A program made the position numbers and the translations under genes. A stretch of 64,000 bases of DNA. Source: Patescibacteria group bacterium. GTDB lineage: Bacteria; Patescibacteriota; Microgenomatia; UBA1400; MFAQ01. The first letter of the stretch is position 1; each line of letters opens with the position of its first letter. The stretch covers positions 4,999 to 68,998 of the forward strand of contig CALRDV010000005.1 in the NCBI GenBank assembly GCA_943355005.1, written 5' to 3'. The notes under the pieces are model-generated. The model searched no databases. It saw only the letters and a program-made list of their open reading frames with translations, and had not been told where the DNA came from. Below are positions 12,138 to 28,023 of this stretch, piece after piece.

Positions 12138-12169
12138 CGTCATTGCGAGGTACTCCGTGGCAATCCAGG
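12138..12169 (+). repeat. Palindromic repeat, type 2 (CGTCATTGCGAGGTACTCCGTGGCAATCCAGG), intergenic
   Basis: The 30-mer is identical to the copy inside the CDS at 51984-52014. Confidence 0.85.
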
Positions 12170-12257: not shown

Positions 12258-15200
12258 ATGACATCGAAATTTACGGGCGCCATCATCGTCGATTCCTCTT
12301 TTTGGGCAAAGCCCGGTGTCCAAAACAAATGGAAAAAAGCCCTAGATAAAATAGATACGGGATACCGCATTTTTGATAAGACAAAAAATAGGTTTGAAAT
12401 CAAGAAATCTCTCGCCAAATTCCTCAATGAAACTACAGCTCAAGAAGTTTTTCTAATAGACACCACACATACATCACCCTCCGACCTTGCCACCTTCTTC
12501 AAGTCAGCTCGTCACTCAGACAACCAGCTCTTCCTCCAATCCAATCCGTCCATCACTCCATTCCACAAAATCCTCTCCAAAAACCTGCACCACGGCCATG
12601 AAGTTTTAGCCTATTCACCTCTCAAACTTCTTCCCCAATCACTTTGCTACAATCTCAAACCCTCCGACCTCTCTTTTGGCACCGATCACGCCATCATCCA
12701 TCTCGCCACTCTGATGTCTCTCTCGATACAAAAAGTCGAGACCAAAATAATATCCAAGAAACGTCACCTACTTCAATCAAGTATTTCCCATCTATCCACC
12801 CGCCTTTCACCACCACGCCCGTATCACCTTCTGGGAGATAACTCGGACAATATGCTCGGCGCCGGCATGGTCCACAGAGGAAAAACTTTCATCACTCACA
12901 CCACTTTGAAAGAGCATCACAGCGCCACAAATACTTTTACTGTTCCTCAAGCTCTCACCGGACTATTTATCTTGCTCGTCCTCATCGCTGGTGTCCTCAC
13001 TTATCCCAGGAACACCATGATTGCTTTCACAGCCGTTCTCTCCACCATATATTTTATCGATGTTCTCTTTAATCTTTTCCTGGTGGGCAAAAGTCTTCAG
13101 ACACCTCCCGAATTGAAGTTCACCCCGGAAGAAGTGGCTAGTCTGAAAGACGAAGAATTACCGATTTATACCATCCTTGTTCCTTTATTCAGAGAAGCCC
13201 TCGTCCTCCCTGGTTTTGTCGAATCAATTTCCAAGATGAACTATCCTCAATCAAAATTGGATGTGCTTCTTCTCATGGAGGAGGATGATAAAGAAACTAT
13301 AGACGTCGCCAATTCTTTAAATCTTCCCGCCTTTATCCGCCAAATCATCGTGCCTCACTCCATGCCGAAGTCCAAGCCCAAGGCCTGTAACTACGGTTTA
13401 GCTTTTGCGAAAGGGGAGTACCTCGTAATTTACGACGCCGAAGATCATCCGGATGCAGATCAGCTGAAGAAAGCCATTTTAGGATTCCGTTCTTCACCTC
13501 CGGAAGTTGCCTGTCTCCAAGCCAAGCTAAATTATCACAACGCCAATCAGAATTTACTTACCCGTTTCTTTACCGCCGAGTATTCTTTGTGGTTCGATGT
13601 TGTCCTCCCCGGCATGCAGTCCATCAATACTTCCATTCCCTTAGGTGGCACTTCCAATCATTTCCGAGTCAAAGATATTATTAAGTTCCGAGGTTGGGAC
13701 GCTTTCAATGTTACCGAAGATGCTGACTTGGGTTCTCGCCTTTTCCGCGCCGGCTACCGCACTGCCATTGTTGATTCTGTCACTTTAGAAGAAGCCAATA
13801 GTAAAGTAGGAAACTGGATTCGTCAGCGTTCTCGCTGGATCAAGGGCTACATGCAGACCTATTTAGTTCACACTCGCGATTGGCGAACTTTTTACAAAGA
13901 ACAAGGCTTGCATGCTGTTATCTTTCAGCTCTCCGTCGGCGGCAAGATTGCCTTCATGCTCATCAATCCACTTTTGTGGGTTATGACCATTTCCTACTTT
14001 GCTCTATATAAATATGTTGGACCAACCATCGAGAGTTTTTACCCAACTCCCGTTTTCTACATGGCTGCGTTTTCTCTAGTCTTTGGAAACTTCCTTTTCC
14101 TCTACTACTACATGATTGGTGTCGCCAAGCACGGACACTGGACCCTGGTCAAATGGGTTTTCCTCGTTCCTCTTTACTGGTTACTTCTTAGTCGAGCTGC
14201 CCTCAAGGCACTTTATCAATTAGTCGTAAATCCACACTATTGGGAGAAGACTGATCACGGTTTACATTTTAGTTTCTTAGCCAAGAAACAAGCCAAAGCA
14301 GAACAGAAAGCCGCCCGCAAAAATAATCACAAAGTCTCTCTCTTCTTCCTCACCGCAATTCTTAATGTTTTAAACCTCCTCCAAAAACTCACTACTCCGA
14401 AACCATCCGTCATTGCGAGTTTCGGTAAACCGAACCGAAGCAATCTCACTCCATCAAACGACAATGTCATTCCGGGCTCGACCCGGAATCCAGAATCTGT
14501 CATTGCGAGCAAAGCGAAGCAATCTAGCTCAATAGCTTCGTCATTGCGAGATTCGTACTCGAACCGAAGCAATCTCATACCATCCAGACTCACATCATCA
14601 TTCAAAAAAGCCTACTACCACCCCCAAGCCGGTAGCATCATGCTCATCATCGCTTCCGTTCTCGGCAACTTCCTAAACTTCGTCTACAGCGCCTACCTCG
14701 GCAACACCATTAGTCTCGAGCAGTTCGGTCTCATCAGTCTTTTTGGCAGCTTTCTATATCTCACTCAAATTCCAACCAGTATTTTTGGAAGTTCCGTCAC
14801 CCGCGAAAGCGCTTTCTATTTTGGTAAGGAGAAAACTCAGCCCAAACATATTTGGAAACAATTTCGTCGCTGGGGAATCTACTTCTCTCTAATTCTTACA
14901 GTTATTTGGCTTCTTTCCATTCCATTTCTCCGGTCTATCTTCAAAGGCGATTCCTTTATTCCTTTTTACATATTCTCCCCGGTCATAATTCTCGGCTTAC
15001 TTTCTTCCGTTGATAGGGGGTTCTTGAATGGCACTCTTCGTTTCAAAATCCTCGCCACCGTCGGTATCACTGAGGCCGTCATTAAACTTCTGTTTACTAT
15101 CCTTTTGGTATCCATCAATCAGAAGCAGAATGTCTATCTCGCTCTACCTCTCTCCATGGCTTTCTCTTTCTTGCTTAGTTGGTTCTTCGCCAGCAGAGTT

Positions 15201-17039
15201 CCGGAAGACAGAGTGGTTACCGAAGATAAGAAAATAAAGTTCCCTTTCAAATTCGCCGGCACAGTTATTCTAAATAAACTTTCATTTGTCGCTTTCCTGG
15301 GTCTGGATATTGTGATTGCGAAAATAATTCTTTCACCCGAGGACGCCGGTCGCTTTGCCCTGGTATCGCTAGTTGGCAAAATGGTCTATTTTTTCTCCGG
15401 GCTTACAGGCCAGTTTATTCTCCCTCTCGTAAGTAAAGAGGAAGGTGCTTCGGGTAATCCTCAAAAAATATTTAGTCAAATCTTCCTGGTCACCATTTTC
15501 TTTACTGCAGTTTCTTATCTTGGTCTTGGCGTCTTTGGCTGGCTAAGTGTACCTCTCTTATTTGGCCCCAAGATGCTCGCAGTGATTCAATACTTGCCTT
15601 TTTATCTCCTCGGCATCGCTTCGTTTACTTTGGCTATGTCCATAATTTCCTATCACCAGTCCCGCAAGAAATATTTAGTTTCCATTGCCAGTTTTGCAAT
15701 TACCCTGATTCAGCTATTCATTCTCATTCGTTATTACCAAACCTTAAAAAGTTTTACCGTCACCCTCGGTATCTTCGGCATTATCCAGTTACTTGTCGCC
15801 GGTATCATGCATCGTCTCACTCGATATTCCACTGCCATAACCCAGAATTCTTACGCCTTTTTTAATCTCTTTAAATCACAAAAGAAATCAGATAAGGCTT
15901 TCGAAGGTCAGATCCGTTTCTTGATTTTCAATTGGCGTGATACCAAACATGTCTGGGCAGGGGGTGCCGAAGTCTACGTCCAAGAGCTTGCCAAAAACTT
16001 AGTAGAGAAAGGACACCAAGTCACCATCTTCTGTGGGAATGATGGAAAGAACTTGAATTCAGAAACCATCGACGGCGTGGAGATTGTCCGAAGAGGGGGT
16101 TTCTTCACTGTCTATATCTGGGCTGCTATCTATTATCTCTTCAAATTCCAGGACAGCTTCGACATCATCATTGATTCCGAAAATGGCGTTCCCTTCTTTA
16201 CTCCTTTCTATACCCGCAGACCCAAACTTTTATTGATCTTCCATGTTCACCAAGAGTTCTTTAGGGAAAATTTAAAGTTCCCAATGCTTCAAATAGCATG
16301 CTTTATGGAAAAAGTATTAATGCCAATTTTGTATAAAAACGAGAAAGTGATGACTATTTCAGAATCATCCGTTCAAGACATATTAAAGTTAGGTATCTTC
16401 AAAAAAGAGGATATATTTGTTGTAAATCCAGGGGTAGTTGTTGAATATCCTCCAGAGGTGACACCACTAACAGAATATCCATCATTGGTATATATAGGTA
16501 GACTTAAAAAATACAAAAATGTTGACATTGCCGTCAAAGCTTTTAAGAAAGTACTTGAAAAATTCCCGGATGCAATATTCAGTATTGGTGGTCATGGGGA
16601 AAGTTTAAGTCAGCTTACAAATTTAGTTAATAAACTCGGAATTCAAAAATCTGTAAAATTACTAGGACGTGTAACAGAGCTTCAGAAATCAAAACTATAT
16701 CAAGAATCATGGGTAGCTATACAGCCGTCTTCTTTTGAAGGTTGGGGAATTACCGTTATTGAAGCAAACTTATTTGGAACACCTGTTGTAGCTTCTAACA
16801 TACATGGGTTAAGAGATTCTATTGTCGACGGGGAAACCGGGATTCTAGTCAAGTCGAAAGACTCAAGTGCCTTCGCAAGTGCCATAAATAAAATATTCGG
16901 AAACAAAAAACTTAGATTAAGAATGTCCGTCGCCGGTGTAGAGCGAGCCAAAAAATTCAACTGGTCCGAAAACACCGACATCTTCCTCTCAGCCATTCAG
17001 CGATATTACCTAGACCTCAACTACAATGAAAACAAATAA
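12258..17039 (+). CDS. 1593-aa multidomain envelope-glycan megaprotein: an N-terminal unknown domain, a processive GT2 synthase-like domain, a repeat-derived linker, a polytopic MOP/Wzx-flippase-like membrane domain and a C-terminal GT4 glycosyltransferase
   Basis: The GT2 motifs are LLMEEDD, YDAEDHPDAD, TEDADLG and QRSRWIKG. The linker at 14408-14576 consists of four palindromic repeats. A membrane domain of about 12 TM helices follows (MLIIASVLGNFLNFVYSAYLGN...). The GT4 domain carries EGWGITVIEANLFGTPVVASNIHGLRDSIVDGETG. Confidence 0.7.
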   Translation: MTSKFTGAIIVDSSFWAKPGVQNKWKKALDKIDTGYRIFDKTKNRFEIKKSLAKFLNETTAQEVFLIDTTHTSPSDLATFFKSARHSDNQLFLQSNPSITPFHKILSKNLHHGHEVLAYSPLKLLPQSLCYNLKPSDLSFGTDHAIIHLATLMSLSIQKVETKIISKKRHLLQSSISHLSTRLSPPRPYHLLGDNSDNMLGAGMVHRGKTFITHTTLKEHHSATNTFTVPQALTGLFILLVLIAGVLTYPRNTMIAFTAVLSTIYFIDVLFNLFLVGKSLQTPPELKFTPEEVASLKDEELPIYTILVPLFREALVLPGFVESISKMNYPQSKLDVLLLMEEDDKETIDVANSLNLPAFIRQIIVPHSMPKSKPKACNYGLAFAKGEYLVIYDAEDHPDADQLKKAILGFRSSPPEVACLQAKLNYHNANQNLLTRFFTAEYSLWFDVVLPGMQSINTSIPLGGTSNHFRVKDIIKFRGWDAFNVTEDADLGSRLFRAGYRTAIVDSVTLEEANSKVGNWIRQRSRWIKGYMQTYLVHTRDWRTFYKEQGLHAVIFQLSVGGKIAFMLINPLLWVMTISYFALYKYVGPTIESFYPTPVFYMAAFSLVFGNFLFLYYYMIGVAKHGHWTLVKWVFLVPLYWLLLSRAALKALYQLVVNPHYWEKTDHGLHFSFLAKKQAKAEQKAARKNNHKVSLFFLTAILNVLNLLQKLTTPKPSVIASFGKPNRSNLTPSNDNVIPGSTRNPESVIASKAKQSSSIASSLRDSYSNRSNLIPSRLTSSFKKAYYHPQAGSIMLIIASVLGNFLNFVYSAYLGNTISLEQFGLISLFGSFLYLTQIPTSIFGSSVTRESAFYFGKEKTQPKHIWKQFRRWGIYFSLILTVIWLLSIPFLRSIFKGDSFIPFYIFSPVIILGLLSSVDRGFLNGTLRFKILATVGITEAVIKLLFTILLVSINQKQNVYLALPLSMAFSFLLSWFFASRVPEDRVVTEDKKIKFPFKFAGTVILNKLSFVAFLGLDIVIAKIILSPEDAGRFALVSLVGKMVYFFSGLTGQFILPLVSKEEGASGNPQKIFSQIFLVTIFFTAVSYLGLGVFGWLSVPLLFGPKMLAVIQYLPFYLLGIASFTLAMSIISYHQSRKKYLVSIASFAITLIQLFILIRYYQTLKSFTVTLGIFGIIQLLVAGIMHRLTRYSTAITQNSYAFFNLFKSQKKSDKAFEGQIRFLIFNWRDTKHVWAGGAEVYVQELAKNLVEKGHQVTIFCGNDGKNLNSETIDGVEIVRRGGFFTVYIWAAIYYLFKFQDSFDIIIDSENGVPFFTPFYTRRPKLLLIFHVHQEFFRENLKFPMLQIACFMEKVLMPILYKNEKVMTISESSVQDILKLGIFKKEDIFVVNPGVVVEYPPEVTPLTEYPSLVYIGRLKKYKNVDIAVKAFKKVLEKFPDAIFSIGGHGESLSQLTNLVNKLGIQKSVKLLGRVTELQKSKLYQESWVAIQPSSFEGWGITVIEANLFGTPVVASNIHGLRDSIVDGETGILVKSKDSSAFASAINKIFGNKKLRLRMSVAGVERAKKFNWSENTDIFLSAIQRYYLDLNYNENK
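14408..14576 (+). repeat. Tandem cluster of four palindromic repeats (types 2, 1, 2, 2) inserted in frame in the megaprotein gene
   Basis: Copies lie at 14408-14447, 14465-14493, 14499-14527 and 14538-14576. They translate as SVIASFGKPNRSNLT...VIPGSTRNPESVIASKAKQSSSIASSLRDSYSNRSNLI. Confidence 0.85.
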
Positions 17040-17928
17040 AAAGTTGACAGTCACCATCGGCATCCCTGCCTATTTTGAGGGATCAAATGTAATATCGATT
17101 GTTTCAAAAATTATGAGTCAAAATACTACCCACTTTGAACTTGCAAAGATTGTGGTAGTTTTAGATGGATACGAAGATGAGTTTTCCGAATACTTGTCGA
17201 TGTATCACAATGAAAAAGTAAAAATATTCAAAAATACTAACAGAAAAGGAAAGTCACACAGGCTCAATCAAATTTTTGAAACATCAGAAACCGACCTGGT
17301 AATAACGTTGGATACGGATATTGATTTTGCTAATGAAAATGTACTCGATAATTTAGTCATACCTTTTTTGAAAAATAGTTCGATAGGTATGGTGTCCGGC
17401 AAATCTTTCCCCACAACACCGAACTATTTTGTCGAAAAAGTCTCACTCTCTAGCATTCTTATTTGGGAAGAAATAAAATCCAGATCAAAAAATCCGGCTT
17501 TTACGGCGGAAGGAACAATTAGATGTTTTTGTAAAGCCCTTTACAAGCAATTAAGATTTCCGAACAAAAGTGCCGACGATATATACTCATACTTAGCCTG
17601 TACGCATCTTGGATTCAAATATTTCCATCAAAAAAAATCGATCGTAAATTATAAGACTCCAAAGTCTTGGGTAGACTTTTATCGAGGGCAAATAAGGTTC
17701 TTGTCATCACTAAGTATTCAGGAGGGCGAGTTTAATAATGAGTTTGTAAAAAATAATTTCTGTATCAAGAACTCAGACAGAATCGCGGCCCTATTAAAGG
17801 TTGGCAGGAAACTTCCCTTGCAAACAATTGTCTATATTTTTACCTGGATAATAGCAAAAATTACCATAATTATTTCCGGGCCGGTAACTACTTCAACTTG
17901 GAAAATTTTGCTCTCAACTAAGAAATAA
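17026..17928 (+). CDS. Glycosyltransferase family 2
   Basis: The N-terminal region LTVTIGIPAYFEGSNV is a GT2 Rossmann start, and the gene is paralogous to the next two genes. Confidence 0.7.
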   Translation: MKTNKKLTVTIGIPAYFEGSNVISIVSKIMSQNTTHFELAKIVVVLDGYEDEFSEYLSMYHNEKVKIFKNTNRKGKSHRLNQIFETSETDLVITLDTDIDFANENVLDNLVIPFLKNSSIGMVSGKSFPTTPNYFVEKVSLSSILIWEEIKSRSKNPAFTAEGTIRCFCKALYKQLRFPNKSADDIYSYLACTHLGFKYFHQKKSIVNYKTPKSWVDFYRGQIRFLSSLSIQEGEFNNEFVKNNFCIKNSDRIAALLKVGRKLPLQTIVYIFTWIIAKITIIISGPVTTSTWKILLSTKK

Positions 17929-17930
17929 AT

Positions 17931-18845
17931 ATGAATAAACCAACTGTCACAATCTATGTTCCTGCCTACAATGAAGAGGCAAATATCTCCAACCTTATTA
18001 AATCATTATTAAAGCAAAGGCAGAGAAAATATCGGCTTAAGAACATAGTTGTAACATCTGATGCCAGCACGGATAGGACCGTTCAGTTAGCCAAACAATT
18101 TAAAGATAAAATAATTATAGTTCTAGACAATAAAACACGATTGGGAAAAAATCAACGAGTCAATGAGGTTATCAAGATGTCATCAAGCGATATATCTGTG
18201 ATAATTGATGCTGACACTGTTCCGGAAAGTGATTCGACCATAGAATTACTAATTGATCCCATTATAAAAAATTCTCGCGTTGTTTATACTTCAGGGCTTC
18301 CAGTTCCAATAAAATCAAATACTTTTATTGGTACTGCAATACAAATTGCTAGAGGTGTTTGGGACAAAATCCGTGACGAAATTAAGAATGGAGAAGGCAT
18401 ATATACCTGTCACGGACAGCTATACGCGTTGAGGACGGACTTTGCAAAAATGCACCCATACCCTAACGAGATGTGGACAGATTCTACTTTCTATTATTTT
18501 ACCTGTATTAAAAAGAATCGCTTATATAAGCCAGCGAAAAGAGCTCGAGTTCTCTTTAATACTCCATCTACCCTTAAAGATCATATTTCACAGATTGGAC
18601 GATACCAAAATCTTGATTCGATTTCAATTAAATATTTTGGAGACGAAATCAGGAAAGAATTATCTATACCAAAAAATCTTTTGTATAAATATAAATTAAA
18701 CGCCTTTCTCCATTATCCGGTTCACACCTTAACAATATTCATTATTAATATTTATGCAAAGACTGTTACAAAAGTCTTAAAAATAAATAAATCCGGAGCA
18801 TGGTTAACGCAATCCAGCACCAAACAATTAATAAAAAATGAATAA
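17931..18845 (+). CDS. Glycosyltransferase family 2
   Basis: PTVTIYVPAYNEEANISNLIKSLLKQ is present, together with a DxD-like IIDADTV motif. Confidence 0.8.
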   Translation: MNKPTVTIYVPAYNEEANISNLIKSLLKQRQRKYRLKNIVVTSDASTDRTVQLAKQFKDKIIIVLDNKTRLGKNQRVNEVIKMSSSDISVIIDADTVPESDSTIELLIDPIIKNSRVVYTSGLPVPIKSNTFIGTAIQIARGVWDKIRDEIKNGEGIYTCHGQLYALRTDFAKMHPYPNEMWTDSTFYYFTCIKKNRLYKPAKRARVLFNTPSTLKDHISQIGRYQNLDSISIKYFGDEIRKELSIPKNLLYKYKLNAFLHYPVHTLTIFIINIYAKTVTKVLKINKSGAWLTQSSTKQLIKNE

Positions 18846-19734
18846 ATTTCCTTCAGTTACTATTGGAATCCCTGCATACAATGAAGCTGAAAACATTGGC
18901 AGTTTAATTACGAGCATATTGAATCAAGATTTCCATAATTTTAACTTAGTTAAAATTATTATTTCCTCTGACAACAGTTCTGATGATACGGTTAAAATAT
19001 CAAAATCGTTCGACGAGAATATCATTGATGTATTTGATAATAAAACCCGAAAAGGTGTGGCCTTTCGGCAGAATCAAATCATACAGTCATCGAACACAGA
19101 TGTATTGATATTATTAAATGCTGATATAAAAATAAAGCAGAAAGATTTTCTGTGGAGGATGATAATGCCGATAGTATCTTCAGATGCAGACTTGACCTCA
19201 TGCAATCTGGCAGCTTTAGAGCCAAGGACGTTTATTGGAAAAATAATGGTATTTTCGTTCAGTTTAGGTAACAGAGTTTTTGTGGAAATGAGAGGTGGAC
19301 ATAACTTATATACGTGTCACGGAGCAGTCAGGGCTTTTTCGAAAAGATTTTATAAAGACTTAGAATTCGAAGAAAGTGTCGGTGAGGACGCATACTCATA
19401 CTTAGATTGTCTAGCTAAAGGTCTTACATACAGATATGTAGCCAATGCGACAGCTTTTATTCGCTGGCCGGAGAACGCCGAGGATCAATATCATCAGAGT
19501 CTCAGGTTCCATCAATCAAAAAAAATATTATCGAAAAAGTTTGGAGAAAAATTAGTACATAAGGAATATAAAATACCAAAGCAAAAGGTTCTAATTTCAG
19601 TGATAAAGTTTTATTTTTTCCATCCGGTGCACGCCCTAATATATACTCTATTTTATTTCTACACAAAGTTATCGTCACTCTTTAATAAGCATGATAATAC
19701 CTGGAAAGTTTCAATAAGCTCAAAGAAACTATGA
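18838..19734 (+). CDS. Glycosyltransferase family 2
   Basis: PSVTIGIPAYNEAENIGSLITSILNQ is present with LLNADIK. This is the third tandem paralogue and shares the YTCHG motif. Confidence 0.8.
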   Translation: MNKFPSVTIGIPAYNEAENIGSLITSILNQDFHNFNLVKIIISSDNSSDDTVKISKSFDENIIDVFDNKTRKGVAFRQNQIIQSSNTDVLILLNADIKIKQKDFLWRMIMPIVSSDADLTSCNLAALEPRTFIGKIMVFSFSLGNRVFVEMRGGHNLYTCHGAVRAFSKRFYKDLEFEESVGEDAYSYLDCLAKGLTYRYVANATAFIRWPENAEDQYHQSLRFHQSKKILSKKFGEKLVHKEYKIPKQKVLISVIKFYFFHPVHALIYTLFYFYTKLSSLFNKHDNTWKVSISSKKL

Positions 19735-20537
19735 AAAAAACAGCCCAAATTATCAGGGGAATTATCTACTATCTATTCGGTGTTTTTGATGATTTCTTAA
19801 ACATAAAGGTTCCGGATATTGTAGTTATTTGTTATCACGGAATTGGCATAGATGATTGGCAATACAATATTAGCCTTGAAGAATTTAAAAAACAGGTTGA
19901 CGTGATTTTAAAACTACGAACTCCGATGTCCTTGTCTCAGTTGACCGAATACATACAAGGTAAAAGAAAAATAGAGAAACCGTCATTTGTTATTACGTTC
20001 GATGATGGCTACAAAAATGTACTTAATTGTCTCGAATATCTAAAAAATAAGGATATAAAACCAGGGGTATTTCTACTATCAAACGAGGACGGAGTTAATA
20101 GGTCTGAGATGGGAAATTCACTAGAGCTCTTAACATCAAAAGATGTTTCAAATTTAGTTTCAGCTGGTTGGGAAATTGGATCACATGGCGCAACACATCA
20201 GGATTTCTCTTGTCTGTCTACGGATGAAATTACTAAAGAGATTAAAGTTTCCAAAAGTGACCTTGAGAAAAACCTGGTAACAGAAGTTCAGTATATTGCT
20301 TATCCCAAAGGCAGATATACAAATTCCATACTCGATGAAGTCAAGCAAGCGGGATACAAATTAGGACTTACTATGGATGATAGTTTTATTTCTCGTCAAA
20401 CCAATCCACTGCTAGTTCCAAGAATAGGTGTGGACAAAAGCCATAAAATTTATGAATTTAAAGGGTCATTTTCTCCGACTGTAATCAAACTTAGACATCT
20501 ACTAAAAAAAATCAACATAAACAAGATATATGGCTAA
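19731..20537 (+). CDS. Polysaccharide deacetylase (CE4 / NodB homology domain)
   Basis: It has VITFDDGYKNV (the Asp-Asp motif) and GSHGATHQDF (the His motif). Confidence 0.8.
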   Translation: MKKTAQIIRGIIYYLFGVFDDFLNIKVPDIVVICYHGIGIDDWQYNISLEEFKKQVDVILKLRTPMSLSQLTEYIQGKRKIEKPSFVITFDDGYKNVLNCLEYLKNKDIKPGVFLLSNEDGVNRSEMGNSLELLTSKDVSNLVSAGWEIGSHGATHQDFSCLSTDEITKEIKVSKSDLEKNLVTEVQYIAYPKGRYTNSILDEVKQAGYKLGLTMDDSFISRQTNPLLVPRIGVDKSHKIYEFKGSFSPTVIKLRHLLKKININKIYG

Positions 20538-21708
20538 TAAAAAAATAGAAGTTATCAGTAAGTATTTCTCTCCTGCTAACGCCGGGATTGAAGTCAATAT
20601 TACCGAAACCTACAAAATCCTGGCTAAAAAGGGTTGGGATATCACAGTCCACACCTCGACCGACACCTTAACCGAATCAAACGTCCTCCCTTTAACGGAT
20701 CAAATTTTGGGGATGAATGTTAAGAGGTACAAATTTGCTAAATTAGGGTATTTCCCCAAACTTGACTGGGACAATACCGACTTAGTTTGTTTTCATAATT
20801 TCAATGTATTTTACTTTTTTATACTTGCTTATATAGGAATCAGAAAGGTCTTTGGAAAGAAAAATTTCGGAGTAGTCGTCACACCACATGGTGGCTTCAA
20901 TCCGGAATGGTCAATATACCCAAAGCTAATGGTTTTGATAAAGAAGTCTTATCACTTTACAATTGGAACCTTCCTTATAAATAACGTAGTAGATAGAGTT
21001 CGGGCTGTATCGGAATGGGAAAGAAACGAACTTATAAAGTGTAATGTTTCACCGAAAAAAGTAATAACTATCAGTAATGGACTGGAAGATGATGCATATA
21101 GGGATCTGGAATCTCTTGCCGGTAGCGACATAAAGAAAAAGGTTAAAGATCTCGGAAAATATTTAATCCAAGTAGGTAGAGTATATGTAATCAAAAACTA
21201 CGAGACAGTTATAAAGTCTCTCGTAGACATTCCGAATGATGTGAAGTTTGTTATTGCCGGCGGAGTGGAGGGAAACAATAGTTATTTGGAAAGTCTCAAG
21301 ACACTTTCAAGGGAATTAAAGGTAGAAGATCGGGTAGTATTCCTTGGGGTCATTAGAGGTGTTGATAAGTATTACTTGATAAAGAATGCACAAATGATGG
21401 TCCATATGGCAATTTGGGAAAGCTTTTGTAATGTTGTACACGAAGGCATGAGTCAAGGACTTGTATGTATAGTGGCAAACAATACTGCTCTTCCACTACT
21501 TATTAAAGATGGAGTTAATGGCTATTGTGTCGAAACAAAAGATAGTAAAACGCTTTCGGAAAAAATAAACTTTGTGCTAGAAAATCAAAAAAACAAAATA
21601 ATTGTGGACATGAAAGAAAGAAATAGAAAATTTGGACTTGAAGAATCTTGGACAAGCGTAGCTAATAAAATGGATAAGTTATATAAAAGTTTATTGAAAG
21701 CAATATGA
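20530..21708 (+). CDS. Glycosyltransferase family 4 (GT-B fold)
   Basis: It has a two-Rossmann-domain architecture. The C-terminal domain reads KFVIAGGVEG...VHMAIWESFCNVVHEGMSQGLVCI, an E-x7-E-like region. Confidence 0.65.
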   Translation: MANKKIEVISKYFSPANAGIEVNITETYKILAKKGWDITVHTSTDTLTESNVLPLTDQILGMNVKRYKFAKLGYFPKLDWDNTDLVCFHNFNVFYFFILAYIGIRKVFGKKNFGVVVTPHGGFNPEWSIYPKLMVLIKKSYHFTIGTFLINNVVDRVRAVSEWERNELIKCNVSPKKVITISNGLEDDAYRDLESLAGSDIKKKVKDLGKYLIQVGRVYVIKNYETVIKSLVDIPNDVKFVIAGGVEGNNSYLESLKTLSRELKVEDRVVFLGVIRGVDKYYLIKNAQMMVHMAIWESFCNVVHEGMSQGLVCIVANNTALPLLIKDGVNGYCVETKDSKTLSEKINFVLENQKNKIIVDMKERNRKFGLEESWTSVANKMDKLYKSLLKAI

Positions 21709-22439
21709 TGATATTAAATAGCGTAAGAAAATTGTTTTTTCCAGAGCCATATATCGACAATGGTAATTCTCTAAAAAATAAGGTGGTGATAATTACTGGT
21801 GCAAGACGAGGAATCGGACTTGCCACTGCTCAACTGCTTAGAAAAAAGGGTGCTAAGCTTGCGCTAATTTCTAGAAAATTTGAAAGTAAAAAATTAGATG
21901 GAGTTCTATATATTGAAGCCGACATATCTATTGAAGAGGAGTGCCGGAATGCAATTAGTCTGTGTATTAAAAACTATGGGAAAATTGACTGTTTAATTAA
22001 CAACGCCGGAACCTTTATTGACAAGTCGCTGGATCAAACGACTTTGGAGGAATTTAAGAAAATTTTTGAAAATAATGTGTTCGGAATGTTTAATATGACC
22101 AGACTTATTGTTCCATTTATGAAAAAACAAAAAATGGGAACTATCATAAACATTGGTTCAAAAATAAGTCATAATTCCAATGTCACGCCGAATAAAGTTA
22201 CTTATGCCACTAGCAAATATGCTGTAGAAGGATTTTCTTTTTCCTTAAACAAAGAATTGAAAAAATTCGGCATCAGAGTTTGTTGTTTAATGCCGGGAAC
22301 AGTTTCGACATTTATATCTAGACTAAGTAAAGATTATTTATCACCCTTTGAAGTTGCAAATTTAATTAAAATTATTATCGAATCAGAAAATATTGACTTT
22401 GAAAGTATAGTTTTTAAGTCGGTAAGACAAAACATATAA
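21705..22439 (+). CDS. Short-chain dehydrogenase/reductase (SDR)
   Basis: It has VVIITGARRGIGLATA (TGxxxGxG), NNAG, and YATSKYAVEGF (catalytic YxxxK). Confidence 0.85.
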   Translation: MMILNSVRKLFFPEPYIDNGNSLKNKVVIITGARRGIGLATAQLLRKKGAKLALISRKFESKKLDGVLYIEADISIEEECRNAISLCIKNYGKIDCLINNAGTFIDKSLDQTTLEEFKKIFENNVFGMFNMTRLIVPFMKKQKMGTIINIGSKISHNSNVTPNKVTYATSKYAVEGFSFSLNKELKKFGIRVCCLMPGTVSTFISRLSKDYLSPFEVANLIKIIIESENIDFESIVFKSVRQNI

Positions 22440-22444
22440 AGACT

Positions 22445-23950
22445 ATGAATTTCAAACTTCCAAAAATAGTAATTAATCCGGCTTTGGTAATCACTCTTTT
22501 ATTAGCTATATTGCTATTGTTCTTTACCGTTAAGGGAACCAAAAAAACATATTACGACCAAAGCTTGTACGACACCTCAATGGGAAGTCCTTTTGAGTCA
22601 TCTAATAACTCCTCAAGGTATGCTTTGACTGAGGCAATAACGAACAGACTTTCCTTCATATTAACTCCAGAAGAAGCAAAATTTTCTTCTCCAGATGTCG
22701 CAAAAAAGAACAATCGTTACTTTAGTCTTTTTATGCCTGGAGTATCGGTCTTAGGCGCACCCTTGTTTTATATTGGAAAATATTTGGGGTTTCCACAACT
22801 AACTACATATTTGTTAAACGGAATTATTTCGTTAGTGTGCTTACTCTTTATTGTAAAGATTTCAAGAAAAATAGGTGCAAATAAGAACTGGTCAATTATT
22901 AGCGGATTTCTATTTATATTTTCTTCAAATGTTTGGGCGTATTCTCTTGGCTATACTCAGCATTTGCTGACCACACTGTTGGTGTTAATAGGACTCAAAA
23001 TTATACAAAACAAAATTAACGTGTTAAACAATCTCTTTCTTGGAGTTGTCTTCGGAGCCGGCTTAATGGTCGATTTACCAAACGCAATAATTCTGCTACC
23101 TATCGTCATTTATCAGATTTTGCGCCATTTTGAGGTTACATATAAAACATTTAAGATAAATTGGAAATTATTACTTCTTGCTGTTGGGGTGGTTCCTTTT
23201 ATAGCTAGTTTTATTGGTTATAATATTTTGACCACAGGTTCTCCTTTATCTCCGGCACAATTTTTAGGGAGAACTAGCGACTTTTTTGTAACACAGGAAG
23301 AAATCAACATTTATGAGGCCTCTCGTACGGAACCCAAAACTGGCATTAGTCTACCGTTTAAATCTAGAAAGCAACTGCAAGGACTTTATATTTTAATTGT
23401 TTCGAATGAAAGAGGAATCTTGTATTATTCGCCAGTCTTGATATTGGGTTTATTTGGTTTTTATATATCTTCCAAAAATAGAGGAAGTCTTAGTTTCAAT
23501 CAAGTAACTCTGGGAATAATCGGATTAAATTTATTTGTTTACGCAATGTTTGGTGATCCCTGGGGTGGCTGGTCATTTGGACCTAGGTATATGATTCCGG
23601 CAACCGCCGTCATTATGATATATTTCCCATTCTTTTTTGAATCAAAGAAATATCGAGTTTTGAAATCAATTCTGATGGTTATCTTGGCCAGTTACAGTAT
23701 TTATCTCTCTTCCTTGGGGGCACTAACCACATCTATGGTCCCACCAAAACAAGAGGCAATCTACTTTACAAATCCAATCCCATACACCCCGCAACTGAAC
23801 AAAGAATTTATTGAAACTAAAACCAGTTCTCTTTTTTACAATCTTGTTTTAAACGACAAAATATCAACACTTGCCTACTCAAGAGTTATTCTATCGCTTT
23901 GTTTGATTTATTTATTTGGCATGACTATTTACGCAAACACCCATGATTAA
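22445..23950 (+). CDS. Polytopic membrane protein, probably a GT-C-type glycosyltransferase or polymerase
   Basis: About 12 predicted TM helices, with no soluble enzymatic motifs recognised. The assignment rests on context within the glycosylation locus. Confidence 0.45.
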   Translation: MNFKLPKIVINPALVITLLLAILLLFFTVKGTKKTYYDQSLYDTSMGSPFESSNNSSRYALTEAITNRLSFILTPEEAKFSSPDVAKKNNRYFSLFMPGVSVLGAPLFYIGKYLGFPQLTTYLLNGIISLVCLLFIVKISRKIGANKNWSIISGFLFIFSSNVWAYSLGYTQHLLTTLLVLIGLKIIQNKINVLNNLFLGVVFGAGLMVDLPNAIILLPIVIYQILRHFEVTYKTFKINWKLLLLAVGVVPFIASFIGYNILTTGSPLSPAQFLGRTSDFFVTQEEINIYEASRTEPKTGISLPFKSRKQLQGLYILIVSNERGILYYSPVLILGLFGFYISSKNRGSLSFNQVTLGIIGLNLFVYAMFGDPWGGWSFGPRYMIPATAVIMIYFPFFFESKKYRVLKSILMVILASYSIYLSSLGALTTSMVPPKQEAIYFTNPIPYTPQLNKEFIETKTSSLFYNLVLNDKISTLAYSRVILSLCLIYLFGMTIYANTHD

Positions 23951-25514
23951 ATTTATTCAAAACAAATCTGTTGTCTGGTATTTGGCGATAATCTTGTCAA
24001 TCGTTTCCATCTTTACCTTCAAGCTATATCTAGACAACGGTCTGGGTCTTTCCTACAACGACGCGCGTTCACACTTGGACATTGGTCGTCGTGTGGTAGA
24101 AGGTCTTAAGCCGGGCTTAGCTCAGCTCGGCTCAGTCTGGCTACCGCTAGACCACGTCCTCATGATTCCGTTAGTTTGGAATGACTGGGCTTGGCACAGT
24201 GGTTTTGCTGGGGCGTTTTGGAACATGCTTTCTTACGTCGGTATTGGAGTCCTAATTTACAAATATTTAGAGAAGTTAAAAGTTGGTATGGTCGGCAGAC
24301 TGTTCGGAGTATTTGTCTTTGCCAGCAATCTCAATATTTTGTATCTTCAGTCTACCGCCATGACAGAACCTCTTCTTTTGTTCACCATGCTGGCAGGCTG
24401 TTACTACCTCATGATTTGGATGACGGAGGATAGATTGCTGGATCTAATCAAAGCTTCTTTCTGGGTCATGATGTCCACACTGGTACGTTACGATGGCTGG
24501 TTCCTTTTGGCCGTAGTTGCTGGTCTGGTCGCGCTCAGAACTTGGTACAAAAAGGGTTACAAAACTGCCGAAGGTACCCTCATTTTATTCTGTACTGTCG
24601 CCGCTTTTGGTGTTGTATTGTGGTTTGGTTGGAATCTTTTGATTTTCAAAGACCCTCTCTACTTTGCCTTCGGTCCTTACTCCGCCCACGCCCAGCAAGA
24701 GCAAATGCTCGCTGCGGGCGCTTTACCTACCAAAGGCAACGCCGTGCTATCTCTACAGACATATTTGTACTCCATGATCTACAACTCTATTGCCACCGTT
24801 GCTTTCTTGGGTATCATTGCCACATTTGTGCTCTGGTTTGATAAAAAGCTTGATGGGGCAGCCCGTCTTGCCTCCTCGGCTCTCTGGGCACCCTTTGGTT
24901 TCAATATCATCGCCCTCATCTTCGGCTTCTCGGTTATTTTTATTCAAGGAATTTCCGGCAATACCTGGTTCAATGTCCGCTACGGCGTCATGCTCATGCC
25001 GACGCTTGCCATCTTTATTGGGTACTTTGTACATCGTTTCAAAGATTTTCGCTGGGTCATCATTGGACTATTTATGTTTGTTTCCTTCATAGCTTTTACC
25101 AGTAACGACTCTGTCAGTATCGACGATGCTCGTGTTGGAAGCAGTCAGAAAAATGTTTCCGAAGTATCAGGTTGGCTAGAGAAGAATGCCAAAGACAAGC
25201 CGGGTTTCATTATGATTTCTGCTGCCAGCCACGACGCTATTATTTTCTCCAGTAATCTGCCAATGAAGAAGTTTATTCACGAAGGTACTGGTGCATATTG
25301 GGAAAGTGCCGCTATTGCTCCGGACCGCTGGGCCAGATGGATCGTCATGAGAACCCACGATGTGAACGACTCTACCTTTAAGTTTGTCGGTGTCGCTCCG
25401 GGATTTACCAAGTATGATTTAGTAGACAGCTATCCTTTTGCTGATATTTATCAGCTGAGAGATGAATATCTGCCGGATCTAAACACCACCCCCGTCTATG
25501 GCCGTCAAAAATAA
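23943..25514 (+). CDS. Polytopic membrane protein, GT-C-like, with a C-terminal periplasmic domain
   Basis: The N-terminal half has about 11 TM helices and the C-terminal roughly 150 aa is soluble. This architecture is typical of ArnT/PMT/AftD-like GT-C enzymes. Confidence 0.45.
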   Translation: MIKFIQNKSVVWYLAIILSIVSIFTFKLYLDNGLGLSYNDARSHLDIGRRVVEGLKPGLAQLGSVWLPLDHVLMIPLVWNDWAWHSGFAGAFWNMLSYVGIGVLIYKYLEKLKVGMVGRLFGVFVFASNLNILYLQSTAMTEPLLLFTMLAGCYYLMIWMTEDRLLDLIKASFWVMMSTLVRYDGWFLLAVVAGLVALRTWYKKGYKTAEGTLILFCTVAAFGVVLWFGWNLLIFKDPLYFAFGPYSAHAQQEQMLAAGALPTKGNAVLSLQTYLYSMIYNSIATVAFLGIIATFVLWFDKKLDGAARLASSALWAPFGFNIIALIFGFSVIFIQGISGNTWFNVRYGVMLMPTLAIFIGYFVHRFKDFRWVIIGLFMFVSFIAFTSNDSVSIDDARVGSSQKNVSEVSGWLEKNAKDKPGFIMISAASHDAIIFSSNLPMKKFIHEGTGAYWESAAIAPDRWARWIVMRTHDVNDSTFKFVGVAPGFTKYDLVDSYPFADIYQLRDEYLPDLNTTPVYGRQK

Positions 25515-26724
25515 AATCATCTTAGTCCTATTCATTTTTGCAATTTTAATCGTTGCTAGATTTTTTCAACTCTCCTTGGTTGGTGGTTCGGCTACCCCCA
25601 AACAATTTTGGTCTATCCGCTCCATCGATGTGATGAAATATAGCCGTGACTTGGCCAGGGAAAAATTAATGGATCCAAAGTTCGATGTCACCATCGAAAA
25701 TCAAATTAGCGCCATTGCTTCCACCGGCGCAAGTCATGTGGCTCTCGGAGTTCCTTACGATCATGAATTTTTACCCATTATGCGCCGCTGGGTCACTGCT
25801 ATCCGCCGGCACAATATGAAGGTATGGTTCCGTGGCAATCTCTCCGGTTGGGAAGGTTGGTTCGAATACAAAAAGATCGATCAAGAAACTCATACCGCTT
25901 GGATCAAAGACTTTATTCTCAAGAATCAAGATCTTTTTGAAGACGGCGATTTATTTTCCTCCTGTCCGGAGTGCGAGAATGGCGGAGAAGGGGACCCCCG
26001 CCAAACCGGCAAGGTCGAGCAGTATCGTCAGTTCTTAGTAAACGAAACAGACGCTGTCCGTTTTGCTATGCGCAAGATCGGTAGAGATATTCCGGAGAAC
26101 CTTCACTCCATGAACGGGGATGTAGCTAGATTAATCATGGACAAAGAAACCACCAAGAGATTGGGTGGAAATGTGGTCATCGATCATTATGTCGCCACTC
26201 CGGAAAAATTAATTTCCGATATCAGAGAAATGGCTCGGTCCTCAGGTGGCAATATTATTCTTGGCGAATTCGGTGCCCCCATTCCGGATATTCATGGCAA
26301 CATGGACGAAGCTCAGCAATCCAAGTGGGTCGAGTCTGCTCTCCGAGCCATGAGTCAGGAACCTCTGGTGGTCGGTGTCAATTACTGGACTAGCTTCGGA
26401 GGCAGTACCAAGCTCTGGAACGACGACGGAACAGCAAGGCAGGCTGTCGAGGGTGTCTCCAAATACTTCACCCCACCTCAAGCAGCCTCAAAGGTGGTTA
26501 CCTGGTTTGGCCTGCCTGTAGCCGACGCTCAGGTCTATCTGGGTACATATAGTAGTAGTACCTCAGCGGGTGGCTCATTTAGCCTCCCCAGTGTCTCTCA
26601 ATCGACCTTGGAAGTCTCCAAACCTGGCTTTGTAACCTACAAATTCCCCGTAACTTCGACCCAGAAGATTTATCTAGAGCCTACTTCTTTGTTTACCTTC
26701 CTCAAATTCTTCATTTTTTCGTAA
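25498..26724 (+). CDS. Membrane-anchored glycoside-hydrolase-like protein (clan GH-A TIM-barrel, GH5-like)
   Basis: It has an N-terminal TM anchor. NIILGEFGAP resembles the GH5 nucleophile motif (I-x-x-E-F-G), and NLSGWEGWFE may be the acid/base region. Confidence 0.4.
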   Translation: MAVKNKIILVLFIFAILIVARFFQLSLVGGSATPKQFWSIRSIDVMKYSRDLAREKLMDPKFDVTIENQISAIASTGASHVALGVPYDHEFLPIMRRWVTAIRRHNMKVWFRGNLSGWEGWFEYKKIDQETHTAWIKDFILKNQDLFEDGDLFSSCPECENGGEGDPRQTGKVEQYRQFLVNETDAVRFAMRKIGRDIPENLHSMNGDVARLIMDKETTKRLGGNVVIDHYVATPEKLISDIREMARSSGGNIILGEFGAPIPDIHGNMDEAQQSKWVESALRAMSQEPLVVGVNYWTSFGGSTKLWNDDGTARQAVEGVSKYFTPPQAASKVVTWFGLPVADAQVYLGTYSSSTSAGGSFSLPSVSQSTLEVSKPGFVTYKFPVTSTQKIYLEPTSLFTFLKFFIFS

Positions 26725-26795: not shown

Positions 26796-27419
26796 ATGAC
26801 CAAAATGACCACAAAACAAATTGTTAGTATTGTTACCACCTTCGTTTTTACTGCGATAGTTTTAGTCAGTCCCATAACAGCCAAAGCCCAACTCTCTTAC
26901 CCCAATTTTCCCAGCTGTCTGAATCCGAGCGGCACTGTAAAGGTTATCAATGACTCAGGTTCTCACGGAGTTCCCGGAGATACTAGTAATTACACCGGCA
27001 AAGATATTGTTTATACAAATTCGGATGGCAATTACACCCAGTGTCTCTGTACTTCCAATGGAGATGGTATTCAGACCAATTGGTGGAAGACCGGCTCCAT
27101 TACCGAAGAAGAAACAAATACTCTAAAAGCTGACGGCTGGCTCTATATTCCCGATGGTAGTCTTTGGGGATTAGAGAAAGACTCCTACATGGCCAAGAAT
27201 TCCAAATATGCTTGTACTTCCAATACCGAATCCGGTGGTGGCTCTAGTAATAACAGTTCAAGTAATAGTTCTTCATCCAATGGTTCTGTCCAAGGCACTT
27301 CTACTACCCGCTTTGGTCAAGTCCTGGGACTAGCCACTACAGGAACACTTCCTGCTGTCATTGGCTATATTACTCTCGGCGCCATCGCTCTGATCATCTC
27401 CCGAAGATTAACTAAATAA
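26796..27419 (+). CDS. Secreted surface protein with a C-terminal LAxTG-type sorting signal
   Basis: It has a signal peptide and an S/N-rich stalk (GGGSSNNSSSNSSSSNGS). The C-terminus reads LATTG, then TLPAVIGYITLGAIALII (hydrophobic), then SRRLTK (a positively charged tail). Confidence 0.55.
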   Translation: MTKMTTKQIVSIVTTFVFTAIVLVSPITAKAQLSYPNFPSCLNPSGTVKVINDSGSHGVPGDTSNYTGKDIVYTNSDGNYTQCLCTSNGDGIQTNWWKTGSITEEETNTLKADGWLYIPDGSLWGLEKDSYMAKNSKYACTSNTESGGGSSNNSSSNSSSSNGSVQGTSTTRFGQVLGLATTGTLPAVIGYITLGAIALIISRRLTK

Positions 27420-27428
27420 TAAACACTT

Positions 27429-27461
27429 TGTCATTGCGAGTGTACTCACGTGGCAATCTAG
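27429..27461 (+). repeat. Palindromic repeat, type 2 (TGTCATTGCGAGTGTACTCACGTGGCAATCTAG), intergenic
   Basis: It has the same termini as the other type 2 copies. Confidence 0.8.
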
Positions 27462-27464
27462 ATT

Positions 27465-27995
27465 ATGTTTAAAAAATTCCTCTCTGCTCTATTTTTTATC
27501 TCCGGGATATTCTTGATCTCTCTCGGTTTTGTGGATTTGGCCAAAAGACAAGGAATCATTACCCCGGAGGAAGTCATACCATCACCTTCGTTGGCTACCG
27601 AAGAGCCTCTCTTGATTTTTCTTCCCAAAGTCGGCATCAAACTCCCAATCTATCCGACGGAAATAAAAGACCGGAAATGGCCAACCACCGAAAGCGGTGT
27701 GTCATATATCAAAGATTCAGGTAGGCTCGGTGTTTCAGGTAATCTAGTGATGTACGGCCACAACTGGAAAAACCTTCTAGGCAGTCTCAAGAATTCCAAA
27801 GTTGGCGATACTCTGGACATTTTCTCCAATCAAAACAAAAATCATTCGTACGTCATCAAGTACGTCGCCACAGTAGACGCCAAAGACGTCAGTATTCTCG
27901 CCGATACCTCATCTGAAAGAATCACTCTCTACACCTGTACCGGGCTCCTAGACTCACAGCGCTTCGTCGTCGTCGCCGAAAGAATCAAAAGCTAA
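27465..27995 (+). CDS. Sortase (class E-like transpeptidase)
   Basis: It has an N-terminal TM anchor, NLVMYGHNW (catalytic His), ITLYTCTG (TLxTC catalytic Cys) and RFVVVAERI (conserved Arg). Confidence 0.7.
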   Translation: MFKKFLSALFFISGIFLISLGFVDLAKRQGIITPEEVIPSPSLATEEPLLIFLPKVGIKLPIYPTEIKDRKWPTTESGVSYIKDSGRLGVSGNLVMYGHNWKNLLGSLKNSKVGDTLDIFSNQNKNHSYVIKYVATVDAKDVSILADTSSERITLYTCTGLLDSQRFVVVAERIKS

Positions 27996-28023
27996 ACGTT
28001 TTTCCCCGCGCTATACTTATCTC

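Follow-up and report, generated by a model that had tools for sequence, protein, structure and literature searches.

A Microgenomates-wide membrane protein combining a synthase-type GT2, a predicted MOP-type transporter domain and a GT4 module

Described systems and the protein compared with them

In multi-component transmembrane glycosylation, a sugar linked to undecaprenyl phosphate (C55-P) is made inside the cell, flipped through the membrane and transferred outside (PMC8035078). Such systems consist of a GtrB/CsbB-type GT-A enzyme, a GtrA-type or Wzx-type (GacK) flippase and a GT-C enzyme, as in GacI/GacJ/GacK/GacL of S. pyogenes and in CsbB/GtcA/YfhO (PMC8035078). The dual-chain polysaccharide of lactococci and streptococci consists of a backbone and a separately flipped side chain or pellicle, which are joined outside by GT-C enzymes (PMC8035078). 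The subject of this work is a gene from a 64,000-nucleotide (nt) stretch of a Patescibacteria group bacterium (GenBank assembly GCA_943355005.1, contig CALRDV010000005.1, positions 4,999 to 68,998), referred to as the window. The open reading frame (ORF) at 12258-17039 encodes a membrane protein with 16 transmembrane (TM) helices, which belongs to a Microgenomates-wide family:

12258..17039, + strand: whole ORF, four-module integral-membrane glycan-assembly protein (more than 120 full-length homologues of 1300-1600 amino acids (aa))

The ancestral layout of the family is a GtrB/DPMS-like polyprenyl-phosphate sugar synthase with two TM helices, followed by a BcsA/PgaC-like GT2 synthase with its own TM part, a 12-TM Wzx-like MOP domain and a GT4 module. 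An earlier, sequence-only reading of this DNA had described a GT2, a MOP domain and a GT4 in one 1593-aa reading frame, and this holds, as the ORF is intact and all three domain calls stand. The same reading treated the synthase-dependent and the Wzx-dependent routes of polysaccharide export as normally alternative. Both sets of motifs do occur in one frame. The combination of a synthase with a MOP-type partner has a precedent in Pel (PMC7112168), Wzx-type flippases also serve side-chain glycosylation, as GacK does (PMC8035078), and in GacI/GacK/GacL a GT-A enzyme acting as C55-P-sugar synthase, a Wzx-type flippase and a GT-C enzyme act together (PMC8035078).

Like GacI/GacK/GacL, the family has a GtrB/DPMS-like GT-A domain with two TM helices, a Wzx-like MOP domain and GT-C partners in the operon. 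The difference is that the GT-A domain and the flippase are covalently fused here, and fused also to the BcsA-like synthase and the GT4 module. Moreover, the GT-A domain of the window protein is decayed, and the GT-C partners come from families for which there is no Pfam model. The BcsA/PgaC-IcaA systems share with the family a membrane GT2 with the D, DxD, TED and QxxRW motifs, TM helices on both of its sides and an IcaB-like deacetylase in the operon. In contrast to them, the scans made revealed neither PilZ nor IcaD/PgaD nor outer-membrane components, and the module here is joined to a MOP domain and to two further transferase modules. The likeness to Pel lies in a GT4 tied to a polytopic membrane partner and in the deacetylase of the locus; the differences are the missing membership in the PelG Pfam and PelF NCBIfam families, the missing PelD/E, and the lipid-linked route implied by the GtrB-like and GT-C parts. 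With the dual-chain assembly, the locus shares the proposed logic of two separately exported parts joined outside by GT-C-fold enzymes. There, export of the backbone relies on an ABC transporter and each component is a protein of its own, whereas here the synthase would be fused to the flippase.

Modules of the fusion protein

The ORF is uninterrupted, starts with ATG and encodes 1593 aa. At about 44% GC, a chance origin of 1593 open codons can be excluded by calculation ((61/64)^1593, ~1e-33), and the identical product was independently called on the source metagenome contig of 202 kb. The TM count of the protein is 2 + 2 + 12, as derived from positive-inside counts in 120 homologues. This parity is consistent with a cytoplasmic position of all soluble modules. 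The tandem-repeat finder returned nothing meaningful in the ORF.

The synthase module is located in the first half of the protein:

13155..13892, + strand, aa 300-545: BcsA/PgaC-type GT2 catalytic domain (Pfam, NCBIfam, BcsA alignment)
13434-13445, + strand: GT2 motif DAED
13824-13838, + strand: GT2 motif QRSRW
13908..14228, + strand, aa 551-657: C-terminal membrane part of the synthase, probably TM helices 553-588 and 599-615 and an amphipathic helix 634-657 facing the cytoplasm

Matches in Pfam cover aa 304-611 (PF13632, 7.5e-21; PF13641, 5.2e-20), and those in NCBIfam include CelA (3.8e-17), PgaC_IcaA (4.4e-12) and an XrtG-associated GT2. The PgaC_IcaA model is aligned over positions 28-389 of its 407, and TIGR03111 also covers nearly the whole module. 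The best solved relative is BcsA (5e-8), with an alignment which includes DxD, TED and QxxRW. The motifs D344, DAED (393-396), TED (486-488) and QRSRW (523-527) are invariant in 120/120 homologues. The module thus carries the D/DxD/TED/QxxRW core and the TM helices on both sides which define a processive GT2, the C-terminal topology being deduced from family hydropathy and the counts of K and R in the 120 homologues. The flanking helices may form the glycan channel. The description of the module as a processive synthase is therefore retained as far as the membrane GT2 with all its motifs is concerned, while processivity itself is suggested by the motifs only.

The middle of the protein is occupied by a separate membrane domain:

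14625..15872, + strand, aa 790-1205: 12-TM MOP-superfamily transporter domain, probably of a divergent PST/Wzx-like branch (SpoVB match, AlphaFold2 (AF2) model, Foldseek)

Hydropathy indicates 12 hydrophobic helices at aa ~790-1205, as in Wzx and MATE. Some relatives of the domain match known families, namely PF01943 (Polysacc_synt) in 3/17, with a best value of 1.4e-11, and PF13440 (Polysacc_synt_3) in 1/17. A profile built from 17 diverse members found no solved relative among PDB sequences and gave only a spurious match to a G-protein-coupled receptor fusion, and a fold search was therefore needed. The AF2 model, based on the 17-member alignment, reached a predicted local distance difference test (pLDDT) of 82.8 and a predicted template-modelling score (pTM) of 0.81. 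All 47 Foldseek matches in the PDB at E<=1e-3 are MATE, MurJ or WzxE, with TM-scores of 0.56-0.73. The model thus indicates a MOP fold for the middle domain, while its membership in the Wzx/PST family appears weak at the sequence level. The flippase-like domain proposed before is in this respect supported, as a separate 12-TM domain for which every Foldseek match at E<=1e-3 is a MOP protein. The possibility that this region is only the membrane part of the synthase fails, because the synthase has its own TM helices (233-282 and 553-615).

MurJ has 14 TM helices, of which the extra TM13-14 form the lipid groove, and the residue set R18/R24/R52/R270. Only 12 helices precede the GT4 junction here, and neither a MurJ Pfam nor a MurJ NCBIfam match was found. 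In WzxE, the cavity contains the cationic R44, R143, R239 and R282 and the acidic D262 (PMC11706664). The domain resembles WzxE/MurJ in its 12-TM two-lobe MOP fold (TM-score 0.62-0.68), and the charged residues conserved in its TM7/TM8 and elsewhere may be comparable to theirs; it differs from them in the lack of a significant sequence match to solved Wzx/MurJ or to the Wzx of the window, and in its 12 TM helices as opposed to the 14 of MurJ. The conserved intramembrane polar residues are N804, N807, D919, E939, K943, D1017 (120/120), K1022, K1041, Q1134 and H1185, and the charged residues conserved in the family also include R816, R/K850 and R870. This pattern of conservation points clearly to purifying selection on the domain.

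The C-terminal module follows directly:

15921..17036, + strand, aa 1222-1593: retaining-type GT4 (GT-B) (Pfam, PDB relatives, invariant motifs)

Pfam matches at aa 1235-1559 are PF00534 (3.3e-39) and PF13439 (3.4e-14). The EX7E motif is formed by E1494 and E1502 (nt 16737-16763), and both GGAE and EX7E are invariant in 120 homologues, so that the earlier call of a GT4 transferase is borne out. The junction between the MOP domain and the GT4 module (L-I-F-N-W-R-D-T-K-H) is invariant as well. The closest solved relatives are MshA (1e-19), TarM, PimA and BshA. With two Rossmann-like halves and EX7E, the module is best described as a generic retaining GT-B, and both catalytic modules, GT2 and GT4, look active by their motifs.

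The N-terminal part was regarded by the sequence-only reading as an uncharacterised domain of about 230 aa:

12258..12941, + strand, aa 1-228: degenerate GtrB/DPMS-type GT-A domain, catalytic motifs lost (hhalign, hidden Markov model (HMM) of the intact domain)
12942..13103, + strand, aa 229-282: TM1 and TM2 (233-249, 260-282) with a short K/R-poor loop, outside (hydropathy, positive-inside counts, 120 homologues)

The isolated 228 aa indeed have no Pfam or NCBIfam match and no PF00535; the domain is, however, not novel but a degenerate GtrB/DPMS-like GT2. In ~85% of homologues the equivalent region is a canonical GT2 of ~270 aa, which matches PF00535 in 10/10 members tested (best 1e-30) and carries the motifs PxNE, DDxSxD, GKGKA, DADLQYPPE and DVQSGLKxF. 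The nearest solved relatives of this intact domain are DPMS (5mlz, 1e-17), GtrB (5ekp, 3e-12) and ArnC (3e-11). The window sequence aligns in register with the intact domain (hhalign probability 74%, E 2.9e-5), and the HMM of the latter matches aa 102-228 at 4.8e-14. At the aligned positions, DADLQ is replaced by DTTHT and VQSGLK by YSPLKL. The DxD and catalytic Asp typical of GtrB/DPMS/ArnC, present in ~85% of homologues, are hence missing from the window protein. In 15/120 homologues the domain is wholly lost. The region ends with the conserved juxtamembrane motif GAG..H.GK.FITHTTL..H.SA, and the N-terminal GT2 with the two TM helices which follow it reproduces the GtrB layout. The window N-terminus is thus a decayed polyprenyl-phosphate glycosyltransferase of the GtrB/DPMS type with its homology kept. 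Stand-alone Dpm1-like GT2 genes are located elsewhere in the window (42903-44084, 46325-47041 and 49145-49906), and they probably replace the dead first module in trans.

Spread of the fusion, linker and gene context

The architecture is shared by more than 120 proteins of 1300-1600 aa at 40-65% identity. The named homologues belong to Gottesman-, Beckwith-, Woese- and Amesbacteria or to bins called 'Microgenomates' or 'Patescibacteria'. In a GTDB scan with one genome per species, the MOP-to-GT4 junction was found in at least 280 species, and the complete four-module ORF in 51/80 of the best loci. In 9 species, the GtrB-like and synthase modules on the one side and the MOP and GT4 modules on the other are two adjacent genes, split at the same linker, and in 2 species the GtrB-like module is a separate gene beside a fused synthase-MOP-GT4. 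The order of modules is constant in all fused and split forms. A search of the MOP profile against 1.8 billion cluster representatives gave 715 matches below 1e-30, and the subfamily occurs alone (~420 aa), as MOP-GT4 (~830 aa, many proteins) and as MOP-GT2, MOP-GT4-GT2, MOP-GT2-GT4, MOP-GT4-GNAT and MOP-APH-GrpB. The fusions to GT4, GT2, GT4-GT2, GT2-GT4 and GT4-GNAT suggest that what the domain transports is made by the cytoplasmic transferases to which it is joined.

The conservation across Microgenomates at this level of identity, with many fused and split forms, indicates that the fusion is not recent, and the four-module protein is best seen as ancient and modular. A recent fusion, which the earlier reading had allowed for, was therefore rejected, given the number of homologues, the GTDB spread and the split genes in the same order. 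Literature searches found no paper describing the four-module architecture, the MOP subfamily or the GT-C partners. Every module is of a known kind, and databases already list the family as 'glycosyltransferase'.

Many of the GTDB records with this Microgenomates-type gene (L006, L009-L013 and others) are titled 'uncultured Gammaproteobacteria' or 'Pseudomonadales bacterium' (TPA, third-party annotation). Given the gene content and the relatives, these labels look unreliable.

In contrast to the fusion itself, the insertion which forms the linker between the synthase and the MOP domain is recent, and it is unique to this protein:

14325..14597, + strand, aa 690-780: lineage-specific linker insertion of ~90 aa, rich in Ser/Asn/Pro (alignment occupancy, direct repeats)
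14408-14455, + strand: in-frame repeat copy
14498-14534, + strand: in-frame repeat copy
14539-14584, + strand: in-frame repeat copy

The region of aa ~690-780 is occupied in only 3-11% of 120 homologues and is absent even from relatives at 64% identity, which points to a recent insertion. Taken alone, the linker matches no family in Pfam or NCBIfam. The repeat linker reported before is confirmed, since the DNA at 14408-14584 contains three imperfect direct repeats, which encode SVIAS...NRSNL(T/I)PS. The linker contains also a moderately hydrophobic stretch of 19 residues, VSLFFLTAILNVLNLLQKL (aa 693-711, nt 14334-14390), which has basic flanks and is found in no homologue. If membrane-spanning, this stretch would invert the MOP and GT4 modules.

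The repeat is dispersed in the window:

12139, 14409, 14499, 14540, 27430, 47053, 51985, 52484, 56268, 56323, 56377 and 56991, + strand: exact cores GTCATTGCGAG
1554 and 3414: copies of GTCATTGCGAG with one mismatch
12139..12149, + strand: the copy in the 253-nt gap 5′ of the fusion gene

The 12 exact copies of the core, all on the + strand, compare with 0.67 expected. The whole unit is ~35-50 nt long and consists of GTCATTGCGAG, 8-25 variable bases and then CGAAGCAATCTC or TGGCAATCCAG. The copies are located in intergenic gaps just 5′ of genes (12139, 27430, 47053) and in frame inside three large envelope-protein ORFs, which, besides the 1593-aa one, are those at 51985 and 52484 and at 56268-56991. 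No Rfam family was matched by the repeat, and RNA folding gives weak hairpins only. The linker thus represents an in-frame insertion of a short genome-wide repeat, placed at a hinge where other species have a gene boundary.

The fusion gene is the first of 10 genes on the + strand (12258-26724), which are read as one operon because their ends overlap or abut. The 253-nt gap separates it from the last pilin gene upstream, and a sigma-70-like TTGATT-16-TATAAT, a consensus match only, is found 26 nt 5′ of the ATG and is a lead to a candidate promoter. The genes downstream of the fusion are:

17026-17928, 17931-18845 and 18838-19734, + strand: three soluble GT2 genes of ~300 aa, overlapping or abutting each other and the fusion gene
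19731..20537, + strand: polysaccharide deacetylase, IcaB/PdaB-like (PF01522, 6.7e-23)
20530-21708, + strand: stand-alone GT4, Agl16-like (Agl16 6.7e-48, full length)
21705-22439, + strand: SDR (short-chain dehydrogenase/reductase) oxidoreductase
22445..23950, + strand: 501-aa polytopic membrane protein, probable GT-C by sequence matches, first of a trio
23943..25514, + strand: 523-aa membrane protein with a predicted GT-C fold (AF2 and Foldseek)
25498..26724, + strand: 408-aa exoprotein, anchored at its N-terminus and with a CarboxypepD_reg-like domain at its C-terminus, third of the trio

The soluble GT2s match AglJ/AglG weakly in NCBIfam. The deacetylase matches PdaB (4e-15), IcaB (1.4e-13, nearly full length) and PgaB (3.9e-12). 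In other lineages, the downstream order is variable soluble GT2s, with or without a methyltransferase, a kinase, the PF01522 deacetylase and a GT4, and then the fixed trio of a ~500-aa membrane protein, a ~525-540-aa membrane protein and a ~350-430-aa anchored exoprotein. Of 64 GTDB loci with ~4.9 kb of downstream sequence, 28 include the beginning of the trio, with its order unchanged throughout; where 10 kb is available, the trio is present in 4/4 loci. The dedicated assembly line for a surface glycan that was proposed earlier fits this conserved operon, and the fusion protein probably serves to make a decorated glycan of the cell surface.

The 501-aa protein matches PMT_2 below the cut-off (E 0.0021) and the LA_3751/LA_3752 putative glycosyltransferase family of NCBIfam at 1.2e-17, and is a probable GT-C glycosyltransferase. 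The hhalign comparison with the 523-aa family (probability 50%, E 1.6e-4) suggests a distant paralogue. The 523-aa protein, which also matches LA_3751/LA_3752, has 1819 homologues across Microgenomates at 62-85% identity, all 'hypothetical', no Pfam domain and an invariant motif in the first loop, YNDARSHLDIGRRVVEGLKPG (YNDARSHLD), where GT-C enzymes carry a conserved acidic residue. Its AF2 model (pLDDT 75.9, pTM 0.78) has 22 Foldseek matches at E<=1e-3, all of them GT-C (STT3, ALG12, ArnT, PglB, AglB, DPY19), and AftB and PMT, which are also GT-C, rank just below this threshold. On this model the protein has a GT-C fold, and it likely represents an unnamed GT-C family of core function. Few proteins of the locus are as conserved as this one, with its 62-85% identity compared with ~45% for the fusion, and this difference suggests a core envelope function. 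The 408-aa exoprotein has 2367 homologues, and its main domain carries the invariant motifs WFRGN.SGWEGWF, CPECENGG and LGEFG. A PDB profile search with this main domain gave no solved relative, and those with the 501-, 523- and 408-aa partners gave nothing useful. One may guess at a resemblance to clan GH-A hydrolases from LGEFG and CPECENGG, which no search supported.

Upstream of the fusion gene, the type IV pilus genes PilB, PilC and pilins are found. These are missing in three other lineages, and the pilus neighbourhood is therefore treated as incidental; a pilus-linked function was rejected as a general explanation since the upstream context differs. Downstream of the operon, the region 26796-28608 encodes two sortases (27465-27995 and 28024-28608) and, ahead of them, a secreted protein of 207 aa, which has a Ser/Asn-rich tract, a C-terminal LATTG-like motif, a hydrophobic helix and a basic tail. 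It is probably a sortase substrate encoded beside its sortases. An 891-aa cellulose-synthase-like GT2 (CelA 1.7e-40, PF03552), unfused to MOP, is encoded at 29548-32223, which gives the organism another enzyme of the synthase type. Further envelope-glycan genes form a second block at 42903-58086:

42903-44084: GT2 fused to a GtrA-type domain
44081-45184: acyltransferase_3/OpgC-like protein
46325-48597 and 49145-51395: two Dpm1-like GT2 genes with a PMT_2 GT-C gene behind each
51425-53269: third PMT_2-like protein
53247-54725: canonical Wzx (Polysacc_synt_3, 1.4e-51)
54649-58086: 1145-aa ORF with no Pfam match

Proposed division of labour and competing explanations

The arrangement which we propose, tentatively and at slightly less than an even chance, is a machine with two arms, where the synthase would extrude a backbone, the MOP domain would flip lipid-linked sugars and the GT-C enzymes would add them outside. 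In the first arm, a beta-linked glycan would be polymerised from a uridine diphosphate (UDP) sugar by the GT2 synthase and would cross the membrane via the synthase's own TM part. The polymer may be based on N-acetylhexosamine (HexNAc), because an IcaB-like deacetylase is encoded in the operon. In the second arm, a sugar or a short oligosaccharide would be built on polyprenyl phosphate by cytoplasmic transferases: the GT4 module, the operon's own GT4 and soluble GT2s and, in the ancestral form, the GtrB-like domain. The MOP domain would flip this lipid-linked unit, which would then be attached on the outside to the backbone, or to some other acceptor in the envelope, by the pair of GT-C enzymes. 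The synthase and flippase routes would in this case be complementary rather than alternative, and the fusion would enforce their 1:1 stoichiometry and proximity.

Several observations weigh against this arrangement. First, the MOP domain of the window protein has, taken alone, no Pfam match at E<=10. Its NCBIfam match to SpoVB, a MOP protein (1.6e-11), covers the N-lobe only and lies far below the cut-off. The alignment of the MOP profile with the canonical Wzx of the window (53247-54725) by hhalign is not significant (E 0.18), and Foldseek does not discriminate between MATE, MurJ and Wzx. Second, R816 and R/K850, which are conserved in the family, are N816 and E850 in the window protein and its near relatives. 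Third, the role of the GT4 module is a guess from its position, and the deacetylase, present in 2/3 other lineages examined, is absent from one.

The cationic residues of Wzx/MurJ had been named in the sequence-only reading as a feature to look for. The family conserves several cationic residues, which may be equivalent to those of WzxE, and the window protein departs from the family consensus at the two positions just named. Because of this loss, the substrate or the activity of the window protein may differ. Within the clade P0001-P0014, in which the GtrB-like N-terminus has decayed or disappeared, almost all members also lack R816, R/K850 and H1160, although P0008 keeps R816. Other lineages without the N-terminal domain retain R816, R/K850 and H1160. 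The joint loss of the MOP residues and of the GtrB-like domain, which is a single event, may reflect co-adaptation to a substrate or just shared ancestry.

An unlikely alternative is a mechanism like that of Pel, in which the GT4 would polymerise an alpha-linked polymer directly from a nucleotide sugar, as PelF does, the MOP domain would serve as export conduit or scaffold, the role proposed for PelG, no lipid-linked intermediate would occur, and the GT2 would make a second polymer. PelG is a member of the MOP/PST group. Among the minimal architectures of the subfamily, MOP-GT4 is the most frequent, with the many ~830-aa proteins and the 9 cases of adjacent split genes, and the junction between the two modules is invariant. 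The deacetylase of the operon also has its counterpart, since Pel comprises PelF (a GT4), PelD/E/G and a deacetylase (PMC7112168). Opposed to this are the family assignments. No match to PF16933 (PelG) was found in the window domain or its 17 relatives, of which 4 match PF01943 or PF13440; the 25 best NCBIfam matches listed for the fusion do not include PelF (NF038011), and the neighbouring GT4 reaches only 38 bits compared with the PelF cut-off of 100. In four gene contexts, no PelD/PelE-like genes were seen. Furthermore, donors linked to polyprenyl phosphate are implied by the GtrB-like module of the ancestral layout and by the pair of GT-C partners.

Such donors would also be used in protein glycosylation, which we regard as similarly improbable. 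According to this explanation, one of the GT-C enzymes would be an oligosaccharyltransferase that transfers the flipped lipid-linked glycan to pilins, surface-layer (S-layer) proteins or sortase-anchored proteins, and the pathway would resemble the archaeal Agl pathway (AglJ/Agl16/AglR/AglB/AglS). STT3, PglB and AglB are the structures which the 523-aa GT-C matches best, but the TM-scores to oligosaccharyltransferases are 0.44-0.57 and ArnT and ALG12 score alike, and no WWDxG-type motif is visible in the 523-aa sequence. The operon GT4 matches Agl16 over its full length, and the GT2s are weakly similar to AglJ/AglG. The position of the fusion gene, just 3′ of type IV pilins and 5′ of two sortases and a probable sorted protein, is suggestive; the pilus neighbourhood is, however, not conserved in the three other lineages. 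Protein glycosylation also leaves the conserved BcsA-like synthase module unexplained.

A true hybrid of synthase and Wzx, in which the GT2 with its ~4 TM helices would be too small for a channel and the MOP domain would carry its polymer as a single conduit, is quite improbable. It would account for the GT2 being flanked by only 2 + 2 TM helices and one amphipathic helix, and for the synthase and the MOP domain being always adjacent in the same order. On the other hand, the small PgaC/IcaA-type synthases have a similar number of TM helices, and the PgaC_IcaA and TIGR03111 models align with nearly the whole module. Members of the MOP subfamily are also found with no GT2 synthase, either alone or joined just to GT4, and the linker between the GT2 and the MOP domain is variable and here 90 aa longer, which argues against a tight composite channel. 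An artefact by chimeric assembly or read-through of separate genes, suggested by the metagenome contig, the repeat-derived linker and the separate genes of some species, is rejected as extremely improbable, because more than 120 independent assemblies and 51/80 best GTDB loci share this architecture, the product was called on the source contig, the domain order and junction motifs are invariant, and the frame is open through the linker.

For the biology of the group, the family matters in several ways. Bacteria of the candidate phyla radiation are mostly uncultured and their envelopes are almost unknown, and this family is present in hundreds of Microgenomates species. From the fusions one can read which synthase, which flippase and which transferases cooperate, and that one machine can hold both a synthase-type GT2 and a Wzx-like transporter. 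The locus also gives markers for the annotation of proteins labelled only 'glycosyltransferase' or 'hypothetical protein'. In its widest form, which is conceivable though doubtful, the proposal is that Microgenomates make a lineage-wide, probably essential envelope glycopolymer, for which one polypeptide would couple the synthase and the Wzx-type routes and two GT-C families would finish the product outside the cell, the strongest version placing the MOP domain in the path of polymer export. If true, this strongest version would be a real hybrid of two textbook paradigms of export.

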